Source of the DNA: a virus
Length of the DNA: 64,000 bases
Virus record (IMG/VR): IMGVR_UViG_3300017971_000007
Strand: one strand, 5' to 3'
Position 1 is the stretch's first letter. Each line of letters opens with the position of its first letter. A program made the translations under genes and the position numbers. Below the pieces are notes generated by a model, which saw only the letters and a program-made list of their open reading frames with translations, did not search any database and was not told the origin of the DNA. Shown here in pieces: positions 2,950 through 38,302 of the stretch.

Positions 2950-3474
2950 ATGAATCCGTTGAATACATACGACAAGAGATTGGCTGTGTGGTCCGTCATG
3001 GACCAGGACAATGACATTTTTCAGATGGTGGCGTGGTTTTTCAAGTCCATTCCATACGATGACAGCGTCCATCCGTTTATGGAGCACAGACAAGTCTGTG
3101 CTTTTAGGTCAGATATTGCTCCGTATACCCCCATTTCTAGGGAATGCATGCTCAATCTGCAAAACAAATACGGAAACATGTTTAATTGGGCTCACAGCCC
3201 AACTTCTGCAATGTATAGAAGGGCCGCTTATAGACCAGATGCTTGGAAAGTGTTTCGTGAGTACCTTGAAAAGACATGGGGGAACTATCTTCCGAAAGAC
3301 TTAGTTCCTGTCAGCACTAACCTCCTCGTTAGTGACTATCTTCTCTATAAAGGCCTGTTTAACTTGTACAAGGATTTTACGAACGCCGCACATGACGAGA
3401 AATTACTTTCCAGGTACGATTTTGTGTTCACTCCTCCGAAACTTCCAGCTTGTTATGCGGGAGTGGGAAAATGA
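2950..3474 (+). CDS. hypothetical protein
   Basis: 174-aa ORF, GAGGTG RBS. Confidence 0.7.
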   Translation: MNPLNTYDKRLAVWSVMDQDNDIFQMVAWFFKSIPYDDSVHPFMEHRQVCAFRSDIAPYTPISRECMLNLQNKYGNMFNWAHSPTSAMYRRAAYRPDAWKVFREYLEKTWGNYLPKDLVPVSTNLLVSDYLLYKGLFNLYKDFTNAAHDEKLLSRYDFVFTPPKLPACYAGVGK

Positions 3475-4334
3475 TGAACGATTCATCTGATTTCAATTTG
3501 TTTGTAGAAGGGCCTCACGAGCACGTCCATCGTGAATTAACGGAGAGAGGTTCAATTACTAAAGGGACGAACAAGTCCGTAATAGGAAACCCTGAGTTTG
3601 CTGAGATCTTGCAACGGGTGGACTGGTATTTGGAGGCTGTCAATGGATTAATCAGGCTAAGGGATCCTCATTCTATGGACTTGTCCACTGACCGAGGAAA
3701 ATTGGATTTTATCAATGCGTTGGATAGAAGAATAGCCGGAATGGTGCGAAAAATTGCGAGGATAGGGGATTCCATAAAAGATTTTGATGATAAGAATGGT
3801 ATCGAGGAAATGAGGATGTTCAGCAGAGAGAGAATTCTTCTAGAGGAGTATAAGCGGGGATTTGAGTGTGGACGCGTAGTTAGTGCCAGACGAAGAACTA
3901 GGGTCTTGAAAAGGTGGATATCTAAAGACGGCTCTGGAATCGAGATAATAGGGGATGTAAGTAGGCCCTTTATATGGAAAAAAGTCGTTCCTGGACAGCT
4001 GGTATCTCTGGGATCCAAAATAGTGTATCTTGATTCCAAAAAGAGGCTGAACTGTTTCTCCTATAACGAGAAAGCCGAGGGCTGTCATGTAATCACTGTA
4101 GGCAGTACTGGGTTGGTAGGATTTATCCAAAAGACTGGAGTCGAGCTTGTGTGTCGTCAGTTAATTGGGGATAAGTTTCTTCACATTCTTCATGCGAATG
4201 AGGGAGGTGTCATATCTGTCAGTGGAAGATATTTCATCTTGTTTAGTGGAGAACTTTTTCCTATTCCTACGTCTATTCTACTGAGAGACGGCATCATCAA
4301 ATCTGATTCTTTTGAGGAGAGTCCGAATCAGTAA
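3471..4334 (+). CDS. hypothetical protein
   Basis: Long ORF; ATGA coupling at 3471. Confidence 0.7.
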   Translation: MMNDSSDFNLFVEGPHEHVHRELTERGSITKGTNKSVIGNPEFAEILQRVDWYLEAVNGLIRLRDPHSMDLSTDRGKLDFINALDRRIAGMVRKIARIGDSIKDFDDKNGIEEMRMFSRERILLEEYKRGFECGRVVSARRRTRVLKRWISKDGSGIEIIGDVSRPFIWKKVVPGQLVSLGSKIVYLDSKKRLNCFSYNEKAEGCHVITVGSTGLVGFIQKTGVELVCRQLIGDKFLHILHANEGGVISVSGRYFILFSGELFPIPTSILLRDGIIKSDSFEESPNQ

Positions 4335-4354
4335 TCAGATATCGAGGAACGGTT

Positions 4355-4558
4355 ATGAGTGTCATACAACCAAAAGAAGAAGTCTGTAAGTGCGAGGACA
4401 GTCAGTTTCTTGTTATCGAAAAGCACGGTGCCTACGACTACCACCGGTGTCTAACATGCAAAAATGTTATAAAGGTAGTGGACACTATGAAGGAGAAAAG
4501 AGGTGGACGAACTAGAAAAAAGAGTAAAAGAGTTCCTCCAAAAATTCATGAGCAGTAG
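4355..4558 (+). CDS. small Zn-ribbon protein
   Basis: CxC...CxxC, basic tail, GAGG RBS. Confidence 0.55.
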   Translation: MSVIQPKEEVCKCEDSQFLVIEKHGAYDYHRCLTCKNVIKVVDTMKEKRGGRTRKKSKRVPPKIHEQ

Positions 4559-5684: not shown

Positions 5685-6361
5685 TTATGTCCGAATTTTT
5701 GAAAAAGTACTGGGTTATGTCATTATTGGCTTTCATCATTCTCTCTGTGGCCGCATCTTCCATAATATGCGCAGTTGCCAGGGGGGAAGGCGATAACGGG
5801 TTTATGCGTGTGGACTCAAAGCCCGTGGTGTGGAAAGGGACGGACCTTCCGATTTCCTGTTTCTACAGCGATGTTCTTCACTCTCATTTCCATTATATGA
5901 ATGACGCCATTCAAAGAATAAACTCTTCCACGAATAAAATAGTGTTCTTGAGCTGCTATCCGTGGTCTATGAAGACCGAATACTCCAACTCCAGGAAGAA
6001 GGTCGTAAAGGGGATTGTTTTAGTCACAAGCTCTGTAGAGGATGTAGAGGGGGAAGAATCTGTAGTGGTTACTACGAACAAATCAGTACCTATATTTTCT
6101 AGTGTCTATCACAAAAACGGAAACATTTACGGGGTGCGTGTATCTGCAGATCCTGACTACAAACCGTGGAAGGAGTCCGTCAGAGTAAAGATCATGACCA
6201 ATCTATATCTTAGAGCCTTTTTAAATGCTTTGGGTCTGGACAATGACAGGGTCAAAAAATCTATCATGTATCCGACTGGGGATGCTGGCACCATTCTTCT
6301 ACAAAAGATTACAGACAGGGACATGAAGCTTTTAAAATCTGTATATTCCGGTCCAAAATAA
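5681..6361 (+). CDS. membrane-anchored matrixin/metzincin-like protein with degenerate active site
   Basis: N-terminal TM helix; RAFLNALGLDN in place of HExxHxxGxxH, followed by SIMYP Met-turn. Confidence 0.6.
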   Translation: MIMSEFLKKYWVMSLLAFIILSVAASSIICAVARGEGDNGFMRVDSKPVVWKGTDLPISCFYSDVLHSHFHYMNDAIQRINSSTNKIVFLSCYPWSMKTEYSNSRKKVVKGIVLVTSSVEDVEGEESVVVTTNKSVPIFSSVYHKNGNIYGVRVSADPDYKPWKESVRVKIMTNLYLRAFLNALGLDNDRVKKSIMYPTGDAGTILLQKITDRDMKLLKSVYSGPK

Positions 6362-9053: not shown

Positions 9054-10091
9054 TTGGATCAGACAGAGAAAAATGTCATGAATACGTTTATACTTCATCA
9101 TAACGATTGGGATGGGTATGTATCGGCGTGGATCCTTAATAAAGAAATAGACAGTATTTTTGAGGATAAAGTAACAGGCGATATCTTCAAAGACGCTGCC
9201 GGACCCCACAAGATCTGGTCATTTCCAGTGAAATACGGTGATCACATCACGAAAATTGAGGAGTTGAATGATCGGCCAGATGCTCTGGTCTACATCCTGG
9301 ACTTCTCTTTCCCTTCAGACGAATTGTTCGAATTCGCGAAGAATAGGAGTGGGCTGGTAATTCTTCTGGACCATCATGTTAGTGCACGAGATAAATACTC
9401 TACCTATCTTCAGGAATTGGGGAAAGGTTTTAATATTTTTAATAGGACAGTGGAGATGGGGTTGAGATCGTACTGTACATATACGGACCTCAATTGCAGA
9501 ATCATATTCGAAGACGGCGTACCTGGATGTATAATGACTGCGGACTATCTGAACGGATTCCACCTGTCGTCAGGTCCTCCAGCAATCCCAACGTATTTGG
9601 CTGAGTACGTTGCAGAGCACGATCTGTATAAATTTGATCTCCCGCACTCAAAATCCATTAGGTCTGCATTCAGGAAATATCAATTATCCTTAGAATCGTG
9701 TGAGATCATGAATAATAGACTAGAGACTGAGTTCGGTGACGTAGTTCGTGAGGGAAAAGCTATCCGCGACTACATGGAGAGACTCAAGAAATCTGCCATA
9801 AGACGGGCTGAAGAAGTTACGATGAACGGTCTAACAGGTCTGATGACAGCGAACGTCCCAAACCAGGCATCGGATATAGCTCATCAGCTTGCTGTGGATT
9901 CTAAGGACGGTCTCGGGGTGTGTTGGTACAAGGAAAGAGGTAAAGATAGGGTCTGGCACTATGAGCTGAGGTCGGACGGAAGATTAAATGTGTCGAAGAT
10001 AGCGAAGCTGTACGGAGGAGGAGGTCATGTCCGCGCTGCTGGATTTACTAGTGAAAGACCTCCTACTTCATTCATACCCAAACAAAAATAG
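9054..10091 (+). CDS. DHH/DHHA1 family phosphoesterase (NrnB/oligoribonuclease-like)
   Basis: HHNDWDG, YILDF, LLDHH, DLY.F, ELRS and GGGGH.RAAGF motifs. Confidence 0.9.
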   Translation: MDQTEKNVMNTFILHHNDWDGYVSAWILNKEIDSIFEDKVTGDIFKDAAGPHKIWSFPVKYGDHITKIEELNDRPDALVYILDFSFPSDELFEFAKNRSGLVILLDHHVSARDKYSTYLQELGKGFNIFNRTVEMGLRSYCTYTDLNCRIIFEDGVPGCIMTADYLNGFHLSSGPPAIPTYLAEYVAEHDLYKFDLPHSKSIRSAFRKYQLSLESCEIMNNRLETEFGDVVREGKAIRDYMERLKKSAIRRAEEVTMNGLTGLMTANVPNQASDIAHQLAVDSKDGLGVCWYKERGKDRVWHYELRSDGRLNVSKIAKLYGGGGHVRAAGFTSERPPTSFIPKQK

Positions 10092-27583: not shown

Positions 27584-28197
27584 GGCTCTGATTTCTCCTT
27601 ATTTAAGCAGATACCTGCGCTTTTCGCGCATTCTGATACGAATGAGGCTAAATTTACTGCTTCTCTTATGTCATATGACAGGTATTTCGATACAGACAAG
27701 TCTGCTTGAGTATTAGGTCCCCATGTGGCTTTGATACCCAAGAAATTCTCAAATAGGCATGGTTGTAGGATAACAGACGGTAGTACGAGCATGTATGGGT
27801 AGTTTTTATCTTCGTGAGTTCGTATCTCTATTATTATGTCCATAGAGACGTTCTGTTTATTTAGTCCATCATTCAGGACTTTTTTAGACCCCTCTGTGAT
27901 ACTTTTGGAGAACCCTCCATCAAGAATCCTTTTTATAAGAAGTTTCATCTTATCATTTCTGCCGCAGATCACGAGATCTCTATCTATCTCCCTTTTTTCT
28001 TTCATAGTGTATTCTGAGTACACACGCTCTGCGGCCCATGACTTTTTCTTATACTTTTCGGCTCCCAATCCAATCTGTACCCCATTTTCATTCACTGGAA
28101 TAAATGATTGATATCCTCTTCTTATTACCTCCCCTATTGTTTTTTTATCTTTTCTAGTGACAACAGCACCATCTTTTTTTAATATGAACTCTCTCAT
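27577..28197 (-). CDS. hypothetical protein
   Basis: 206 aa, AGGAGG RBS. Confidence 0.7.
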   Translation of the reverse strand: MREFILKKDGAVVTRKDKKTIGEVIRRGYQSFIPVNENGVQIGLGAEKYKKKSWAAERVYSEYTMKEKREIDRDLVICGRNDKMKLLIKRILDGGFSKSITEGSKKVLNDGLNKQNVSMDIIIEIRTHEDKNYPYMLVLPSVILQPCLFENFLGIKATWGPNTQADLSVSKYLSYDIREAVNLASFVSECAKSAGICLNKEKSEPW

Positions 28198-28215
28198 TAA
28201 TCCTCCTGTATCCGT

Positions 28216-28246
28216 GAAAACCCTCTGGGATTCCCAGAGGGTTTTC
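28216..28246. repeat. perfect 15-bp inverted repeat
   Basis: GAAAACCCTCTGGGA-T-TCCCAGAGGGTTTTC, intergenic. Confidence 0.9.
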
Positions 28247-28248
28247 TC

Positions 28249-28539
28249 TTATTTACTGGTTGTCTTGAAAACTAGTAAATCAGTGAAGTCACCCACTTCT
28301 ATGCGGTAAACCTTATCTCTGCGCTCGTATTTGCATTTATCTCTTTCCATTATCTCGTCCAGAGCAATCTCCGGCATTATGTCCTCTGGGTCCTCTCCCG
28401 GGAAAAGATCTTCGCAGATGGCATCCCATTGTTCATCAGGAACACTTATCAGAGCCTGCCAGATGGATGTAGGGGTTTCTGACTTTTCTGTCTCTTCTGG
28501 CTCGTTCTTGTTGTAGATAATCTCTTTCGGTATCTTCAT
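28249..28539 (-). CDS. acidic hypothetical protein
   Basis: 96 aa, coupled. Confidence 0.65.
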   Translation of the reverse strand: MKIPKEIIYNKNEPEETEKSETPTSIWQALISVPDEQWDAICEDLFPGEDPEDIMPEIALDEIMERDKCKYERRDKVYRIEVGDFTDLLVFKTTSK

Positions 28540-32175: not shown

Positions 32176-32397
32176 CTATTTTTGTTTCTTAGTTTGAAGT
32201 TTTTTTAGTCTTCTTGAAGCATTTGACCTGTTTGCGTAGGTTCTTACTTTGGTGTTGGTGGATAGTTCTTCTATGGTATGCCCGACAGCGAAGCAGTTTC
32301 CTATGGGGTCGTCAGCTATCCATTTGTTTAGCTTATTGTCTTTATGGGCTAAAAGAAATCTCCCAGCAAATTTCCCGTTCTCTATTTTCTGGACCAT
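32176..32397 (-). CDS. hypothetical protein
   Basis: AGGAGG RBS; 73 aa. Confidence 0.65.
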   Translation of the reverse strand: MVQKIENGKFAGRFLLAHKDNKLNKWIADDPIGNCFAVGHTIEELSTNTKVRTYANRSNASRRLKKLQTKKQK

Positions 32398-32520
32398 TCT
32401 GTCCTCCTGGTTCGGTCATAGGCAGTATACAGAGAATGGTGGCTCTAGTGACAGATGTTTCTGTATCTGGTCGAGTCCTCAGATATTTTCTCACATTAAA
32501 TCTGAGGACTCGACCACGTT

Positions 32521-33087
32521 CTAAATAGGTGACCTCATCTCCAACTTCCTAGTTCTGTGCCTGTTCATCTTTACAGTATGTATTATCGCTGTCGGATTCT
32601 CTTCCTTGTTCTCAAACAAGACCAACGGTCTGTAATTTTTAGTTTTGACCGAGCTGAACACATACGTATCAGTTTCTCCTTCAAATACAGACCTGTATAT
32701 CTGAAGGTATTCGCTTTTTACTCCATTTCTTATGTGGGAGTGGCTGGACGAGAAGACTCTCAGGCCGTACTCACTCACGGCCGCATATTCCTCTTTTCTT
32801 GGTATCGATTCCCAGGCAAGGTCCATGGTTCCACACCCCAAAAGTATGCCCGTCCATCCTCTTTTATATATGTGCCAGATTATGTCACTGTACGCTCTGG
32901 AGTTAGAGGCCATAAAGTCGGCAGCAGCCTCCAATTCATTGAGTTCCGGGCATAGTTGGATGTGTTGCTTCTTAACACAGAACCCAAACACCCAATTGAA
33001 TATAAATAGGCTATCTCCCTGTTCTATTGCGAAGAAAGGGAATTCCGTGAAGCTAAGTAAAGTTTCCATCGTGTCTCTAGTTAGCAT
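32521..33087 (-). CDS. hypothetical protein
   Basis: AGGAGG RBS; 188 aa. Confidence 0.7.
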   Translation of the reverse strand: MLTRDTMETLLSFTEFPFFAIEQGDSLFIFNWVFGFCVKKQHIQLCPELNELEAAADFMASNSRAYSDIIWHIYKRGWTGILLGCGTMDLAWESIPRKEEYAAVSEYGLRVFSSSHSHIRNGVKSEYLQIYRSVFEGETDTYVFSSVKTKNYRPLVLFENKEENPTAIIHTVKMNRHRTRKLEMRSPI

Positions 33088-33765: not shown

Positions 33766-34331
33766 AAAAACACGCGCATACTCGAAACCAGTATACGAGC
33801 GTTCCGACCCCGGTTTGTCCTCTCACACTGTCATCTTCGCTTCTTAGCACGGACGGACGTGCTTAGTTGCTCAGACGACGGTGCCCGTCGAGAGGAGCGG
33901 GGCCTATAGCCCTCGCATCGGTATCCAGGAACAGAGAGAAAGCCAGAAAGGCTTTCTTGTAGCTTTAAGACACTGCGCATCTGAGCTCGCTACGTACTCG
34001 GATGAGGAGGGACTCTCCCAGAGCGTTCGAGGTTCGTCCTCTTGCTCTCGCGCCGTGCTATCCCCGGAAATACCTCTCGGCATTTCTTGTATAGCTCTAG
34101 CCTCGGCCAGGCTGCTGGATTCCTGTCCAGCTCAGTCCTACCCTGCTTGACGTCACATGTGAAAGCCTTCATGTGACGCGGCGCTTGGACAGCACCCACT
34201 CCGTGACTGCGTAATCTTCACAATTACGCGGCCTCCCGTTTCACGGGGACGGCGGTACTACTGCCTGCTTGATGAGCCCGTTTAGCAGAACGGCGGTGGC
34301 TTAGGGCTCTCCCACAGGGTCCGGCTCCGGA
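33766..34331 (-). ncRNA. putative large structured RNA, 3' part (~560 nt), ending in a terminator-like hairpin and U-tract
   Basis: GC-rich, no credible ORF; roughly 15-18 consecutive stems, e.g. 34151-34159/34170-34178 (9 bp), 33937-33944/33950-33957 (8 bp), GAAAUGCC-GAGA-GGUAUUUC. Confidence 0.65.
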
Positions 34332-35180
34332 TTAAACCAGGGCGGCCTTGACCATCTCCAAGGCTTCGCCTGCATCCACGCCCTCGGCCAACTTCGCGAT
34401 GAAGCCGCCTTTGTGGGCGAAGATAACCCGGGAATCGTCACTCAATCGGCTGAAGTCCACCCGTGGGTGGTCATCATACCGATAGAGCGCCCAACTCTCA
34501 CCAGCTCGATCACTTTTGGTAATCGAGAAGGCGACGTCTGGGCATTCTCGGGCGCGGTATTGAGCCATCGCCTTCGAAAGTTCGAAGGTTATAGTCTCTT
34601 CCGCTATGAAGCCCTGAAGGTCGTCAACTTCAACCACCTTGGCCAGCTCCCGGATAGACGAATGCACTTTACTGTAATCGTCTATCCTGGCGAGGAGATC
34701 CATTCCGAAGTCGACTAGGAATTCCGTAACGGAATCCCCCATCTCGTCTCCGAATTCCTCTCGCGCACCGAACCATCCGATTAGGACGGTTTCGATTGGG
34801 GAGAAGATCTCCTCAGGGAGCTTTTCCATCCCCAGAGCCTTGGCCGTTACAAACGGTCCCTTGGAGTCCAAGAGAACGGTTGTTCGGTACCAGCTCTGAA
34901 GCTGGAAATGCTCCTCTAATCCAAGATGCCGAACGAATAGCGACAATGCGCATTCTGGATCGGCATCCCGAGGGAGCTGGTGGTGGTCGAAGTTTAGCCG
35001 CTCCGGTTCATGACGCCCGCCGCAGTCGAGCACAAGGACTTCAGCGTCCTCAAGCTCTTCTTGCGTGGGGTCACGCCGGAAGACCGGCACGCACCCGTAC
35101 AGGGCAAGCGCGATTGCGACGGATAGAAAGTCGTCGCGGTGCGCTGCACCGGGGTGCGTGATGATCTTTTTGATCATCAT
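34332..35180 (-). CDS. MYG1-family (UPF0160, DHH-superfamily) hydrolase/exonuclease
   Basis: ITH.G.AH.DD, RRDP, LD.GG.H.P...NFDHHQ and C-terminal FAHK.GFIA motifs. Confidence 0.85.
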   Translation of the reverse strand: MMIKKIITHPGAAHRDDFLSVAIALALYGCVPVFRRDPTQEELEDAEVLVLDCGGRHEPERLNFDHHQLPRDADPECALSLFVRHLGLEEHFQLQSWYRTTVLLDSKGPFVTAKALGMEKLPEEIFSPIETVLIGWFGAREEFGDEMGDSVTEFLVDFGMDLLARIDDYSKVHSSIRELAKVVEVDDLQGFIAEETITFELSKAMAQYRARECPDVAFSITKSDRAGESWALYRYDDHPRVDFSRLSDDSRVIFAHKGGFIAKLAEGVDAGEALEMVKAALV

Positions 35181-35182
35181 TT

Positions 35183-35638
35183 CGACCTAGCACCGAGACG
35201 TTGGTGCTGCGCTCGTCTATTTACCTCGACGAGTGAGGCAGTCCCAAAACCGGGGGAGAACTCCGGTATACTGAGTTGACCAGACTCAGCAGTTTACACG
35301 CGTTTCATCCCGCTGGTATTGCCAGGAATCCCCGCGATCTCCTCTTTCCCCTTTTTTGCTGCCGGGGGACATCGGCTTCTGTTCCCACGCCCTAGCTCGC
35401 GTCGGGCGCGGCGGGACTGATTACCCGCAGTGCGGCCTCAGAGCCTACTCTTCGCAAGAGCAGCTCTCCCACCGTTCTTTACACGAACGGCAGTAGAGAA
35501 CTGCTTGGAAAGAGTTGACTCCGACTGGCTCGTTCCTGACATAGCAGGTCGAGTTCCAGTCGACCACCCCGATGCCCTCGGGGTGGTTCTCGGCCAAATC
35601 CTCTCTGAATTCAGAGGGGATTTCTTTCTGTTTCATTC
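35183..35638 (-). ncRNA. putative large structured RNA, 5' part (~450 nt)
   Basis: Begins right after promoter motif; nearly continuous stems, e.g. 35563-35572/35578-35587 (10 bp), 35522-35528/35556-35562; H-type pseudoknot at 35347-35376. Confidence 0.6.
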
Positions 35639-35643
35639 ATATA

Positions 35644-35672
35644 TCTTATACAGAAAACTGCGTATATTTTTG
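35644..35672 (-). promoter_or_regulatory. putative early promoter of the RNA-MYG1 unit
   Basis: AAAAATA-N13-GTATAAGA on - strand. Confidence 0.7.
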
Positions 35673-35703: not shown

Positions 35704-35928
35704 TTATTTATATGGTCCGAGCACGACCGAGTCGTGCTCATATTCCGGAGTTTTGAAACACTCCGGAATAATTCCAGACTGGGTATTTGAAAATACCCAG
35801 TCTGCCTCCTCTGCTAGATATATATAATCTAAGTCAACTAACTCTAAATATACTTCATCATAGTCGGCCAGTCCGACTATGACTTCATCCTCTCCCCCAG
35901 GAGCTGTGATGATGTCATACACCTTCAT
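35704..35928 (-). CDS. acidic hypothetical protein
   Basis: GGAGG RBS before ATG 35928; own promoter (GTATAAG at 35945-35951) and terminator. Confidence 0.7.
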   Translation of the reverse strand: MKVYDIITAPGGEDEVIVGLADYDEVYLELVDLDYIYLAEEADWVFSNTQSGIIPECFKTPEYEHDSVVLGPYK

Positions 35929-35975
35929 TTTTACCTCCATAAATCTTATACAGATATTCGCGTATGATTTATAGA

Positions 35976-36019
35976 AGCTAAAAATATGGAGGGGGAAGAT
36001 GCCGGAAACCCCCTCCATA
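35976..36019 (-). terminator. terminator
   Basis: TATGGAGGGG/CCCCTCCATA stem then TTTTTAGCT on - strand. Confidence 0.7.
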
Positions 36020-36023
36020 AATC

Positions 36024-36563
36024 TTATCCAAATATGTGGTCGACTATCTTTATGGCGAGTATACGCCTAAACTGTCTATCGTCTAACATTTTGTCGATTT
36101 CTCTATGCGTTAGGAGATCTGCTATTGTTATTTCATGGCCTGATATATCATACTCCGCCATAAAACTATCAACCCCGCCTTTACACAATTTTTCAACGGC
36201 CCAATTGTATTCTAGTGTTATATCTTTGTACGTTTCTAATATTTTAGTTAAGTTATCTTTTTTAGTGTATTGAGTAATTAATTTATTTTCGGATTTTTTT
36301 CTCAGCTTTTCAGAGAAGTAATCCGCCCACACTTTCCCATCATCAAACCAGTCTATTATTGAGATTCCTTCCTCGCAATGATACACGAATTCGTTTTCTT
36401 GGGCGCACACGGCGTCTGGTAAGACAGCGTCAATGTACTCCTCGGAAAACGCTTCTACGGTGTTCCCTCTGCGTCTCCAGTATAGATTGCAGTTGGGGTC
36501 TGCGGTCCACCCGTCGACAATTTCTCCCACAGCGTATCTCGGATCCTCATAGTCAGACCACAT
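36024..36563 (-). CDS. hypothetical protein
   Basis: 179-aa ORF. Confidence 0.7.
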   Translation of the reverse strand: MWSDYEDPRYAVGEIVDGWTADPNCNLYWRRRGNTVEAFSEEYIDAVLPDAVCAQENEFVYHCEEGISIIDWFDDGKVWADYFSEKLRKKSENKLITQYTKKDNLTKILETYKDITLEYNWAVEKLCKGGVDSFMAEYDISGHEITIADLLTHREIDKMLDDRQFRRILAIKIVDHIFG

Positions 36564-37295: not shown

Positions 37296-37500
37296 TAAAA
37301 AATTTCGAGTGCCCTTTTCACGACAACCCTGGATCGGTTTCCCGTCACTGATTGTCAGGCACTCGTGGCTGCCGTCGGCTTGGTGGATGTCCTCCACTCC
37401 TTAGGCCCCCTTCGGGCATCTCTGCCGGGGACGACATCCGTTACCAGATGCGGTCGTCTCCAACAAGCCTGCGCTGTCCACATCCTCAAAGGGAGGACAT
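37296..37500 (-). ncRNA. putative ~200-nt structured small RNA with own promoter and terminator
   Basis: Promoter motif at 37505-37531; 5' AUGUCCUCC pairs with GGAGGACAU (37492-37500/37387-37395); GUAA and GAAA tetraloop hairpins; closing CGAGUGCC/GGCACUCG stem and U-tract. Confidence 0.65.
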
Positions 37501-37699: not shown

Positions 37700-37903
37700 A
37701 AAAAAGAAGCCGTGCACTTGGGCGTTTTGGATGGCAAGCAATCATCCCTGTGATTGCAGTCTGTGCACGGCTTCTATGCGTTTATCAGCCCTGCTTTCCC
37801 AAGCAGGTAAGTTCACGCGTTCTCGTCAGCCTTTTTTGGGGAGTGCGGCTTACTTCACTCCATCTATTTATTTTCTAAAGAATGAGGAGACGGTCTCCTC
37901 GTT
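37700..37903 (-). other. structured intergenic RNA element/terminator
   Basis: 13-bp stem 37705-37717/37763-37775 with internal hairpin and U-tract; three further hairpins upstream. Confidence 0.5.
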
Positions 37904-37915
37904 TTATTGCACTTT

Positions 37916-38230
37916 TCAACGAGTGCATCTGCGACTCTCCGTTTTTATAATCTCTTCCAGTCTAAATTTAAACAGTGACGGAGACGTATTCGCCAGCGCG
38001 AACTCCGCCTCCGTCAAGGCGTAGATCTCCCCCCCTTCCGTTTCGAAGAAGAAGGGGTCGGAAATAGGCTGACCAGTGGAATCGAAAAACGACTCCACTG
38101 GGACGTTGAGACCGTCTTCGGTCTCAACGTGAGTTGCGGTCTTCGGTTTAAAGGCCGCTTTCACGGCCCCGTATGATTTCAGATAAGGGGCCGCAATCGC
38201 AGCCCCCAGAATACATAGTTCGATGAGCAT
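37916..38230 (-). CDS. hypothetical protein with hydrophobic N-terminus
   Basis: AAGGAG RBS before ATG 38230; promoter motif at 38249-38275. Confidence 0.7.
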   Translation of the reverse strand: MLIELCILGAAIAAPYLKSYGAVKAAFKPKTATHVETEDGLNVPVESFFDSTGQPISDPFFFETEGGEIYALTEAEFALANTSPSLFKFRLEEIIKTESRRCTR

Positions 38231-38302
38231 GTTTTCTCCTTTATAGCTCTTATACCTACACAAACGTTTATTTTTCGGGCGCTTGTGTGCTAACTTAGAC
38301 GT

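Follow-up and report, generated by a model that had tools for sequence, protein, structure and literature searches.

A phage MYG1-family gene with a predicted messenger folded over its whole length and a candidate RNA family in its 3' untranslated region

Structured untranslated regions (UTRs) on nuclease genes are familiar, and feedback through the enzyme's own messenger is common among ribonucleases. In the E. coli rne 5' UTR (Rfam rne5) and the RNase III-cut pnp leader, a nuclease gene carries a long, conserved and structured UTR by its ribosome-binding site. In lambda sib retroregulation of int, it is a 3' structure, a single RNase III hairpin, that decides 3'-5' exonucleolytic decay. Eukaryotic MYG1 proteins are themselves 3'-5' RNA exonucleases. 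To our knowledge, ribonuclease genes are generally not known for hyper-structured coding regions. The phage cassette described here resembles rne and pnp in its logic, and feedback via the enzyme's own mRNA is plausible by this analogy; it differs from them in having no Rfam match, in carrying its main conserved element in the 3' UTR and in that the coding region itself is folded. The likeness to lambda sib suggests that the fate of the phage gene could be set downstream of its stop codon by structure and 3'-5' exonucleases, but the place of the sib hairpin is taken by a ~136-nt multi-helix element with invariant loops, within a 180-560-nt structured tail. GOLLD, ROOL and HEARO/omega RNA (IscB-TnpB) are also ornate conserved RNAs of hundreds of nucleotides, on mobile DNA and joined to a nuclease ORF, whereas the cassette has no covariance-model match, guide-like variable segment or transposon ends, and encodes a predicted DHH phosphoesterase rather than the RuvC/HNH protein of IscB-TnpB. 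Finally, MS2/Qbeta, HDV and Obelisks share with the cassette synonymous sites arranged for very high conserved pairing and long-range closing helices; by contrast, the cassette is a dsDNA-phage gene with a promoter-like site and a terminator, and nothing in it points to RNA replication or circularity. We found no description in the literature of a DNA-phage protein gene with synonymous-site-encoded, conserved and gene-specific folding over the whole messenger (z -8 to -20) and, attached to it, a new conserved 3' RNA element.

The nuclease cassette occupies positions 33766-35672, on the minus strand, of the 64,000-nt stretch of DNA analysed here (the window), which belongs to an uncultured 175-kb phage, and would give a ~1.9-kb transcript. 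As initially proposed, it forms a single unit running from a recurrent promoter-like motif, through an intact MYG1/DHH-DHHA1 gene, to an intrinsic-terminator-like hairpin. Its upstream boundary is the terminator-like hairpin and U-tract (35700-35686) that closes a small-ORF unit. The promoter-like site (35639-35672) contains the motif TATAAGAnnTAT (35639-35650), found 18 times in the whole window against 5.9 expected; the related loci L002, L004, L005 and L103 have a -10-like word resembling it at 75-90 nt upstream of their MYG1 start. That the cassette may be expressed early, as the preliminary description had it, we infer from the promoter-like motif alone. The downstream boundary (33766-33802) consists of the second intrinsic-terminator-like hairpin (33797-33775) and its U-tract. 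Between these limits lie a distal 5' UTR, a proximal leader, the 282-aa gene (34332-35180) and a 3' UTR divided into part a', a conserved core and part c'. The cassette is a GC-rich island (55-60% GC compared to ~43% around it; 0.56 at 34-35 kb), as had been noticed. Sense ORFs in the flanks do not exceed 63 aa (5') and 69 aa (3'), none of the flank ORFs scored above cut-off against Pfam, and gene callers placed no gene in the flanks of the three identical public contigs (L114-L116), which are copies of the window's own contig and therefore bring no extra variation. The genes that neighbour the cassette vary between phages. These features support a self-contained, transcription-unit-like cassette with its own promoter-like site and terminator. 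Regarding the phage itself, the neighbouring proteins of the window gave almost no matches to PHROGs and Pfam, which indicates a very novel phage, and blastn and megablast against 50,697 phage records returned no match to the window.

The folding stability of the predicted transcript was compared to that of shuffled controls, which preserved either dinucleotides or codons (synonymous shuffling, with protein and codon usage kept). Both flanks beat their shuffles, with a z-score of -7.40 for the 5' flank (35181-35650) and -5.64 for the 3' flank (33766-34331), none of 100 shuffles being equally stable in either case. This confirms the dense stems first noticed there, and the two that had been quoted (35563-72/35578-87 and 34151-59/34170-78) can be traced in the sequence and recur in the folds predicted for it. 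The structure had been ascribed to the flanks around the ORF, however, and here the picture changes: although the flanks are highly folded, structure is not confined to them, and the two halves of the coding sequence (CDS; z -8.5 and -7.8) are the most structured part of the cassette. Synonymous-codon shuffling costs the CDS of the window ~120 kcal/mol (z -11.1), and the same shuffling gave z -14 to -21 in L102, L004 and L001. In a sliding-window scan, z stayed below about -3 throughout the cassette (mostly -5 to -9) compared to about 0 for most other genes. The sense strand gave stronger z-scores than the antisense strand; in the distal 5' UTR (35271-35638, ~370 nt of dense, lineage-specific stems) the values were -5.9 and -4.5, respectively. 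Moreover, four-fold degenerate sites at invariant residues were more conserved when predicted to be paired (0.70 versus 0.44, p 6e-4). These results point to selection on the RNA, not the protein, written into the synonymous sites of the CDS. The minimum free energy (MFE) fold of the whole 1875-nt transcript (-902 kcal/mol, 70% of bases paired) presents the CDS as a closed domain with 313 internal pairs, around which, in this single-sequence prediction, the 5' and 3' UTRs are zipped by 45 inter-UTR pairs. Part a' of the 3' UTR (34116-34331) begins at the stop codon; the clade conserves its initial ~11 nt, and what follows is a ~190-nt expansion compared to relatives. In the whole-transcript fold, part a' pairs with the 5' UTR. 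Part c' (33803-33983) contributes additional stems (z -4.6 for 33766-33983).

Composition offers another explanation, in which the cassette was recently acquired from a GC-rich phage and its stems simply follow from base composition or from flanking genes that have decayed. Such an import would account for a GC content of 0.56-0.60 in a host phage at 0.43, no homologue was detected for the distal part of the 5' flank or for a' and c' of the 3' flank, and neither part a' (z -1.7) nor the 3' core (z -1.1) is significantly stable when folded alone. But stability is abolished by both dinucleotide- and codon-preserving shuffles, and genes of equal GC in donor-like phages, as well as a 51-57% GC ORF at 38.3-42 kb of the window, fold like shuffles. 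The MYG1 gene is furthermore GC-richer than its neighbours in every genome examined, even inside GC-rich phages, and covariation was found in the core, the leader and the CDS, as described below. We consider a compositional by-product highly improbable; it is largely refuted for the ORF, the leader and the core, and survives just for those ~800 nt of the flanks that are not conserved.

Eight related MYG1 loci, referred to here as the clade, share the ~136-nt 3' UTR element, a two-hairpin leader, a hairpin holding the start codon and a CDS-wide fold, conservation of the flanks being limited to ~130-150 nt on the 3' side and ~70-90 nt on the 5' side. The 3' core (33984-34115) is a compact multi-helix junction with a long stem capped by a GNRA loop and with invariant unpaired bases in loops and junction. 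A covariance model of it, R1, matched the window with 99.9 bits in cmsearch (E 2e-25) and seven other MYG1 loci with 117-148 bits, among them L108, which had been left out of the seed; all eight matches lie directly after the MYG1 stop codon. Pairing holds in 99.2% of the cells of the core alignment, and compensatory changes occur in 18 of its 33 pairs compared to 2-6 in slid controls, a result matched by none of 500 shuffles. The proximal leader (35190-35233), present in 8/8 clade loci, consists of hairpin 1 (35233-35212), a short spacer and hairpin 2 (35207-35190; seven pairs, two with compensatory changes), directly followed by Shine-Dalgarno-like purines (35189-35181). The AUG is buried in a 7-10-bp stem in all eight clade sequences, through two different sequence solutions; in the window the start codon(s) lie in the 5' arm of this hairpin (35159-35179), 35179-35172 pairing with 35166-35159. 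For the CDS, the consensus fold comprises 252 pairs and is 93% paired; compensatory pairs number 55 versus 6-18 in slid controls, the structure conservation index is 0.62-0.68 at 72% nucleotide identity, and some of the predicted pairs are G-U in 8/8 sequences on the sense strand. It should be noted that the covariation counts are inflated because the consensus folds were built from the same sequences that were counted. R1 can be proposed as a candidate new RNA family of eight members with a covarying consensus in independent sequences, and the data support a genuine RNA structure whose conservation includes covariation and which goes with the MYG1 clade of the window.

The covariation expected among homologues was accordingly found in the 3' core, the leader and the CDS, but the distal 5' UTR and parts a' and c' have no detectable relatives. 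For the distal 5' UTR, nhmmer and blastn found no homologue in any fetched locus, including L102 with its similarly long 5' gap, and pairwise alignment of the 5' flank beyond its last ~90 nt was unconvincing. Part c' could not be aligned to the 3' extension common to L102, L108, L004 and L005. Altogether, the sequence for which relatives were not detected amounts to ~370-380 nt on the 5' side of the ORF and ~400 nt on the 3' side. Outside the clade, R1 gave no match on MYG1 loci at 55% identity or less, even with filters off. A specific word pattern of the 3' core was absent from IMG/VR and from GTDB genomes, and none of the five IMG/VR matches to a looser pattern was confirmed by R1.

These data bear on whether the RNA works in trans. 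The folded transcript as a whole, or the RNA of its flanks, could scaffold, guide or inhibit the MYG1 protein or serve as its substrate. The strict co-occurrence of the 3' core with the MYG1 clade, eight times out of eight directly after the stop codon, would fit such a ribonucleoprotein, as would invariant loop and junction bases of a kind typical of partner-binding RNAs and the joint transfer of the entire cassette, high GC included. The exclusive linkage between core and MYG1 is, however, partly circular, because R1 was searched only in loci of MYG1 homologues and in the five loose-pattern loci, and the two word-pattern scans, which are independent of MYG1, yielded no member. In addition, hyper-structured MYG1 genes with merely ~100-140-nt flanks exist (L001), and the AUG hairpin and leader resemble ordinary cis control. 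On balance we hold a trans-acting ribonucleoprotein to be unlikely. The proposal that a giant non-coding RNA captured the ORF in a variable loop fits poorly, because in the close relatives the ORF is accompanied by no more than a ~70-nt leader and a tail of ~180-350 nt; the ORF's own conserved structure in synonymous sites, and the equal structure of the more distant, short-flanked MYG1 gene L001/L090, speak against it as well.

The cassette RNA matches no described RNA family in our searches, which bears out the initial impression that it is unlike known RNAs, introns, tmRNA and RNase P included. Rfam gave no match at gathering score in the 64-kb window, and nothing relevant in the unit at E<=10 or in seven homologous loci at E<=1; at these thresholds GOLLD, ROOL, HEARO, OLE, raiA, Y RNA/YrlA, tmRNA and RNase P were all without covariance-model match. 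Although T-arm-like words occur in L002, L004 and L005, scans for tRNA and tmRNA were negative. A group I or II intron was rejected: the unit matches neither RF00028 nor RF00029, it lies between a terminator and a promoter-like site, and its neighbours vary by phage; the same search recovered a real group I intron in thyX of L005. A permuted group I intron or a group II domain V in the leader or core showed neither model match nor defining motif, and a type III toxin-antitoxin (ToxIN-like) was rejected since the unit holds no direct-repeat family, merely short two-copy chance matches.

Processing of the RNA was also considered. The leader and 3' core could be cleavage or ligation signals, either a new self-cleaving ribozyme or RNase III/P sites, that excise a stable and possibly circular MYG1 RNA from longer transcripts. 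The 3' element begins exactly at the stop codon with conserved bases, the MFE fold zips the UTRs around a closed CDS domain, and the seven-sequence consensus contains long-range closing helices, all of which would suit excision. Yet the inter-UTR pairing is a single-sequence prediction, the 10-bp arms of a long 5'-3' inverted repeat are within chance expectation for 2 kb, and, given a promoter-like site and terminator of its own, the cassette does not obviously need excision. No Rfam ribozyme family was found at E<=10. A hammerhead-flanked cassette was rejected, there being no Rfam hammerhead match and the core word CUGANGA (with GAAA) being absent from the flanks of the window and seven relatives, bar one occurrence at the cut end of L108. 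We find excision improbable.

The protein encoded by the cassette is, from its sequence and predicted structure, a MYG1-family DHH/DHHA1 phosphoesterase and a putative nuclease, in agreement with the first identification of the ORF. Pfam MYG1_exonuc (PF03690, UPF0160) matched residues 5-68 only, with 36.4 bits against a cut-off of 22.1 (E 5.9e-9), and a PDB profile search matched MYG1 exonuclease chains across the same 70 residues. The DHH motif (D65-H66-H67) and the remaining metal ligands (H9, D16, D52 and H256) are unchanged across 24 homologues. The AlphaFold model (pLDDT 94.6) has a two-domain DHH/DHHA1-like fold for which Foldseek returned PggH, NrnA, exopolyphosphatase, pAp phosphatase and RecJ (E 1e-5 to 1e-3); the low TM-scores with these enzymes (~0.3) are consistent with a differing domain angle. 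For mammalian MYG1, 3'-5' RNA exonuclease activity is known (PMC6582341). The closest solved folds are those of dinucleotide, nanoRNA and pAp phosphoesterases, acting on pGpG, nanoRNA and pAp. This raises the prospect of a riboswitch-like aptamer in the 3' core, or else in the leader, coupling nuclease expression to the nucleotide or oligonucleotide that the enzyme degrades, for which the compact junction, the GNRA loop and the invariant unpaired bases would be suitable. A known riboswitch was nevertheless rejected, with no Rfam riboswitch match: the conserved core lies 3' of the ORF, has no expression platform and faces a convergent gene in L103, L004 and L005, so that it is not a leader for anything. 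A sensor of this kind seems very unlikely to us.

Taken together, the evidence points to the messenger's own fate, that is its stability, translation and possibly processing. The reading that we favour, while giving it slightly less than an even chance, is that of a horizontally mobile, moron-like MYG1 cassette whose mRNA is folded over its whole length by selection and acts in cis on its stability and translation. It builds on what was observed directly: anatomy, excess stability, dependence on synonymous codons, conservation with covariation and gene specificity. Transcription, protection, translational restriction and protein binding are steps that we infer. The leader and the AUG-burying hairpin would restrict translation initiation, and the folded CDS and 3' UTR element would shield the transcript from enzymes attacking single-stranded RNA, among which may be RNases of the host and possibly the cassette's own product. 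The nearest folds argue against shielding from the cassette's own enzyme, since long mRNA would not be threatened by activities on dinucleotides, nanoRNA or pAp. In the 3' element, the loops and junctions that do not vary are probably a site of specific recognition, perhaps by the MYG1 protein as part of a feedback loop. Unpaired bases of such constancy count against plain protection, for which a hairpin does not need them; they point to a specific partner or a tertiary fold, and would also be compatible with a ribozyme, a sensor or an RNA acting in trans. There is also a small chance that the cassette gives a discrete RNA of exceptional stability which serves as messenger and as functional RNA at once, either processed, end-closed or even circular and viroid-like, or carrying or restraining its own nuclease; in that case the conserved leader and the 3' core would represent modules of a new class, for processing or for protein docking.

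Should the structure protect or gate the nuclease message, the cassette would be a clear natural case of mRNA 'armouring', with a bearing on phage takeover of host RNA metabolism and on the design of stable mRNAs. If the RNA instead works with the protein or is processed to a stable species, it would represent a new phage RNA-protein system. Under either reading R1, with its eight members, is a defined and testable RNA family, and z-scores against synonymous-codon shuffles suggest themselves as a simple screen for similar cases.

The extent to which the folding is specific to the gene can be judged from its surroundings. The CDSs of the clade gave z -3.9 to -14.7, with 13 of 14 halves below -7.5, compared to z +0.5 to -3.2 for 11 of 14 neighbouring genes. 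The distant MYG1 gene of L001, 44% identical, gave z -8.9 to -11, and its four control stretches +2.0 to -1.4. Many other MYG1 genes (L086, L091, L095, L011, L018 and L036) fold like shuffles, and hence the nuclease does not need hyper-structure. Nor is the feature exclusive to MYG1, since it is shared by two downstream genes of L102 and by a response-regulator gene of L004.

The window comes from an uncultured phage of about 174.5 kb, and three public contigs are identical across the region; no DNA match was found among deposited phages, and PHROG or Pfam matches of the phage's proteins are almost nil. A GC-rich island on the minus strand (33.77-35.65 kb; 0.51-0.56 per kb and at most 0.61 in 300-nt windows, versus about 0.43 around it) lies next to the terminator that closes the preceding unit (35700-35686, minus strand). 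It holds a promoter-like site whose word TATAAGAnnTAT occurs 18 times in the window versus 5.9 expected, a 5' flank of about 460 nt, a MYG1-type ORF of 282 aa (34332-35180) and a 3' flank of about 560 nt that ends with a terminator-like hairpin followed by a U-tract (33797-33766), all on the minus strand, neither flank having a credible ORF. These two end elements agree with the single minus-strand unit seen in the preliminary description, and the cassette is probably transcribed. It behaves as an autonomous unit. Its neighbours vary between phages and no host gene is interrupted, which speaks against an intron-type insertion.

The assignment of the ORF to the MYG1 family was confirmed by a match to Pfam MYG1_exonuc above the cut-off, with an alignment limited to the N-terminal 64 residues. 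Among 465 protein homologues, the closest 24 keep the DHH motif and the other ligands invariant. The structure model, a confident one (pLDDT 94.6), matches two-domain DHH/DHHA1 phosphoesterases, among them PggH, NrnA, pAp phosphatase and RecJ. Judged by predicted fold and motifs, the product is an intact MYG1-type DHH enzyme. The same phage encodes a second DHH/DHHA1-family protein (9054-10091, plus strand, 345 aa) with NrnA-like Pfam matches just around the cut-offs, and the coding RNA of this gene is no more stably folded than shuffled sequence (z -1.3 and +1.6).

The RNA structure of the cassette exceeds chance. The stems quoted in the preliminary description are present, and the flanks it called densely structured gave folding z-scores of -7.4 (5') and -5.6 (3') against dinucleotide-preserving shuffles. 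Its picture of an ORF embedded in structured RNA stood for the flanks and failed in confining structure to them, the ORF halves (z -8.5 and -7.8) being even more structured. In a 300-nt scan of 26-42.6 kb, strong structure was unbroken from about 33.65 to about 36.05 kb, and most other genes, including an ORF of 51-57% GC at 38.3-42 kb, were near z 0. When the codons of each amino acid were redistributed over its positions, keeping protein and codon usage, the folding energy went from -442 to -322 +/- 11 kcal/mol (z -11); the synonymous-codon arrangement therefore builds the structure. The sense strand folds better than the antisense strand and some predicted CDS pairs are G-U on the sense strand in every sequence, which points to RNA and not to DNA cruciforms. 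In the window's MFE structure, the two UTRs are zipped together around a closed CDS domain, which would suit processing modules releasing a defined, perhaps end-closed RNA; this zipping is, however, a single-sequence prediction, and we regard such modules as improbable.

The closest MYG1 proteins (60-66% identity) are encoded on GC-rich phage-like metagenome contigs. A clade of eight MYG1 loci, comprising the window and the comparison loci L002, L004, L005, L101, L102, L103 and L108, shows that relatives preserve the coding fold and that it is specific to the gene. The consensus fold of the eight CDSs (72% mean nucleotide identity) has an energy of -307 kcal/mol and 252 pairs, with 93% paired, and 55 compensatory pairs were counted versus 6-18 in slid controls, codon-phase-preserving slides included. 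The first and last CDS thirds have a structure conservation index of 0.62-0.68. At invariant residues, four-fold degenerate sites have a conservation of 0.70 if predicted paired versus 0.44 (p 6e-4), in a test that is partly circular because consensus folding favours conserved columns. Long-range helices close the CDS in full-length alignments, and a candidate long-range helix pairs conserved bases just past the stop codon with a CDS segment about 800 nt upstream.

Clade CDSs gave z -3.9 to -14.7, with 13 of 14 halves below -7.5, and 11 of 14 neighbouring genes lay between +0.5 and -3.2; the exceptions were two genes downstream in L102 and one response-regulator gene in L004. The former are non-MYG1 genes with unannotated products (2223-2744, z -8.2; 3078-3788, z -14.1), and the latter is a receiver gene (5760-6164, minus strand, z -6.1). 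Most of the more distant MYG1 genes fold like shuffles; that of L001/L090 (44% identity) reached z -9 to -11 with its own controls at +2.0 to -1.4, and those of L010 and L007 are strongly structured too. Since the MYG1 gene is GC-richer than its neighbours in each genome checked, this composition travels with the gene and is not merely a trace of recent import.

An nhmmer search first revealed that the window's 3' flank contains about 130-150 nt conserved downstream of relatives' MYG1 genes. The covariance model of this 3' core, R1 (136 positions; window 33984-34115, minus strand), matches exactly the eight clade loci with 100-148 bits, L108 having been outside the seed, and every match lies a short way past the stop codon of MYG1. 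In its alignment 99.2% of cells pair, 18 of 33 pairs are changed on both sides versus 2-6 with slid partners, and 0 of 500 shuffles reached the observed values. The core includes a long stem capped by a GNRA loop, several of its loop and junction bases are invariant, and the relatives' conserved 3' RNA begins at the stop codon and is 180-370 nt long. A sensor located in this 3' RNA is a very doubtful alternative. T-arm-like words occur downstream of the MYG1 3' RNA in L002 (about 4340-4380) and L004/L005 (about 4290-4330), where ARAGORN found no tRNA.

All eight loci also have a leader of about 70 nt with two hairpins ahead of Shine-Dalgarno-like purines, and in each the AUG is inside a predicted 7-10-bp hairpin, reached by two different sequence solutions. 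Within the flanks, conservation and covariation back the structured RNA for the 3' core and leader; no relatives were detectable of the window's distal 5' RNA (35271-35638, about 370 nt) or of the 3' parts a' (34116-34331) and c' (33803-33983; about 400 nt together). The 5' gap of L102 is about as long as the window's but differently filled. A compositional by-product, whose remaining scope is only these unconserved 800 nt or so of flank, is the least probable explanation.

Overall, the analysis confirms and extends the earlier observation and partly supports its interpretation, and a trans-acting RNA-protein particle now appears unlikely. We tentatively favour a reading in cis, namely a moron-like nuclease cassette with selection for structure acting on the entire mRNA. 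In this scheme the leader, together with the AUG hairpin, would control initiation, the transcript would owe its protection from single-strand-specific decay to the folded body and 3' element, and the invariant 3' core bases may form a specific recognition site, possibly for protein feedback.

That the RNA resembles no known family was borne out: no Rfam family reached gathering score in the 64 kb, and nothing relevant appeared in the unit up to an E-value of 10 or in seven relatives up to an E-value of 1. This search did recover a true group I intron (RF00028, 63.9 bits) splitting thyX (Thy1) in L005 (964-1225). No tRNA or tmRNA genes were found, nor tandem repeats in the unit, nor hammerhead cores in the flanks, and the literature searched held no description of these elements, which are new when compared with Rfam 15.

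Another conserved RNA motif, 'X', of about 95 nt, lies at 37700-37864 (minus strand), with copies in L102 (about 604-702), L106 (about 113-203 and 2054-2142), L107 (about 147-247) and L108 (1262-1317). Its invariant 16-nt hairpin-loop word is perfect between the 43%-GC phage and GC-rich phages, and the motif has no match in Rfam. Its copy in the window precedes an intrinsic terminator and then the ribosome-binding site of a small ORF, an attenuator-like order; in L106 and L107 the motif stands directly ahead of several genes, MYG1 included. Its role may be that of a leader or of an antitermination-type element. Directly after another TATAAGAnnTAT promoter-like copy, a GC-rich, ORF-free, stem-rich stretch at about 37300-37500 (minus strand), with a U-tract at its end, is another candidate small RNA (scan z about -4). 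A 74-aa acidic ORF immediately upstream of the cassette (35704-35928, minus strand) is AT-rich with dense perfect 9-13-bp hairpins (z -10.5 for a 351-nt stretch) and has its own promoter-like motifs (35939-35950 and 36017-36028) and terminator. Three minus-strand segments (32300-32750, 37850-38300 and 27950-28250; scan z about -6 to -9) overlap small ORFs in the same block of leftward genes, and hyper-structured RNA may be more widespread in this region.
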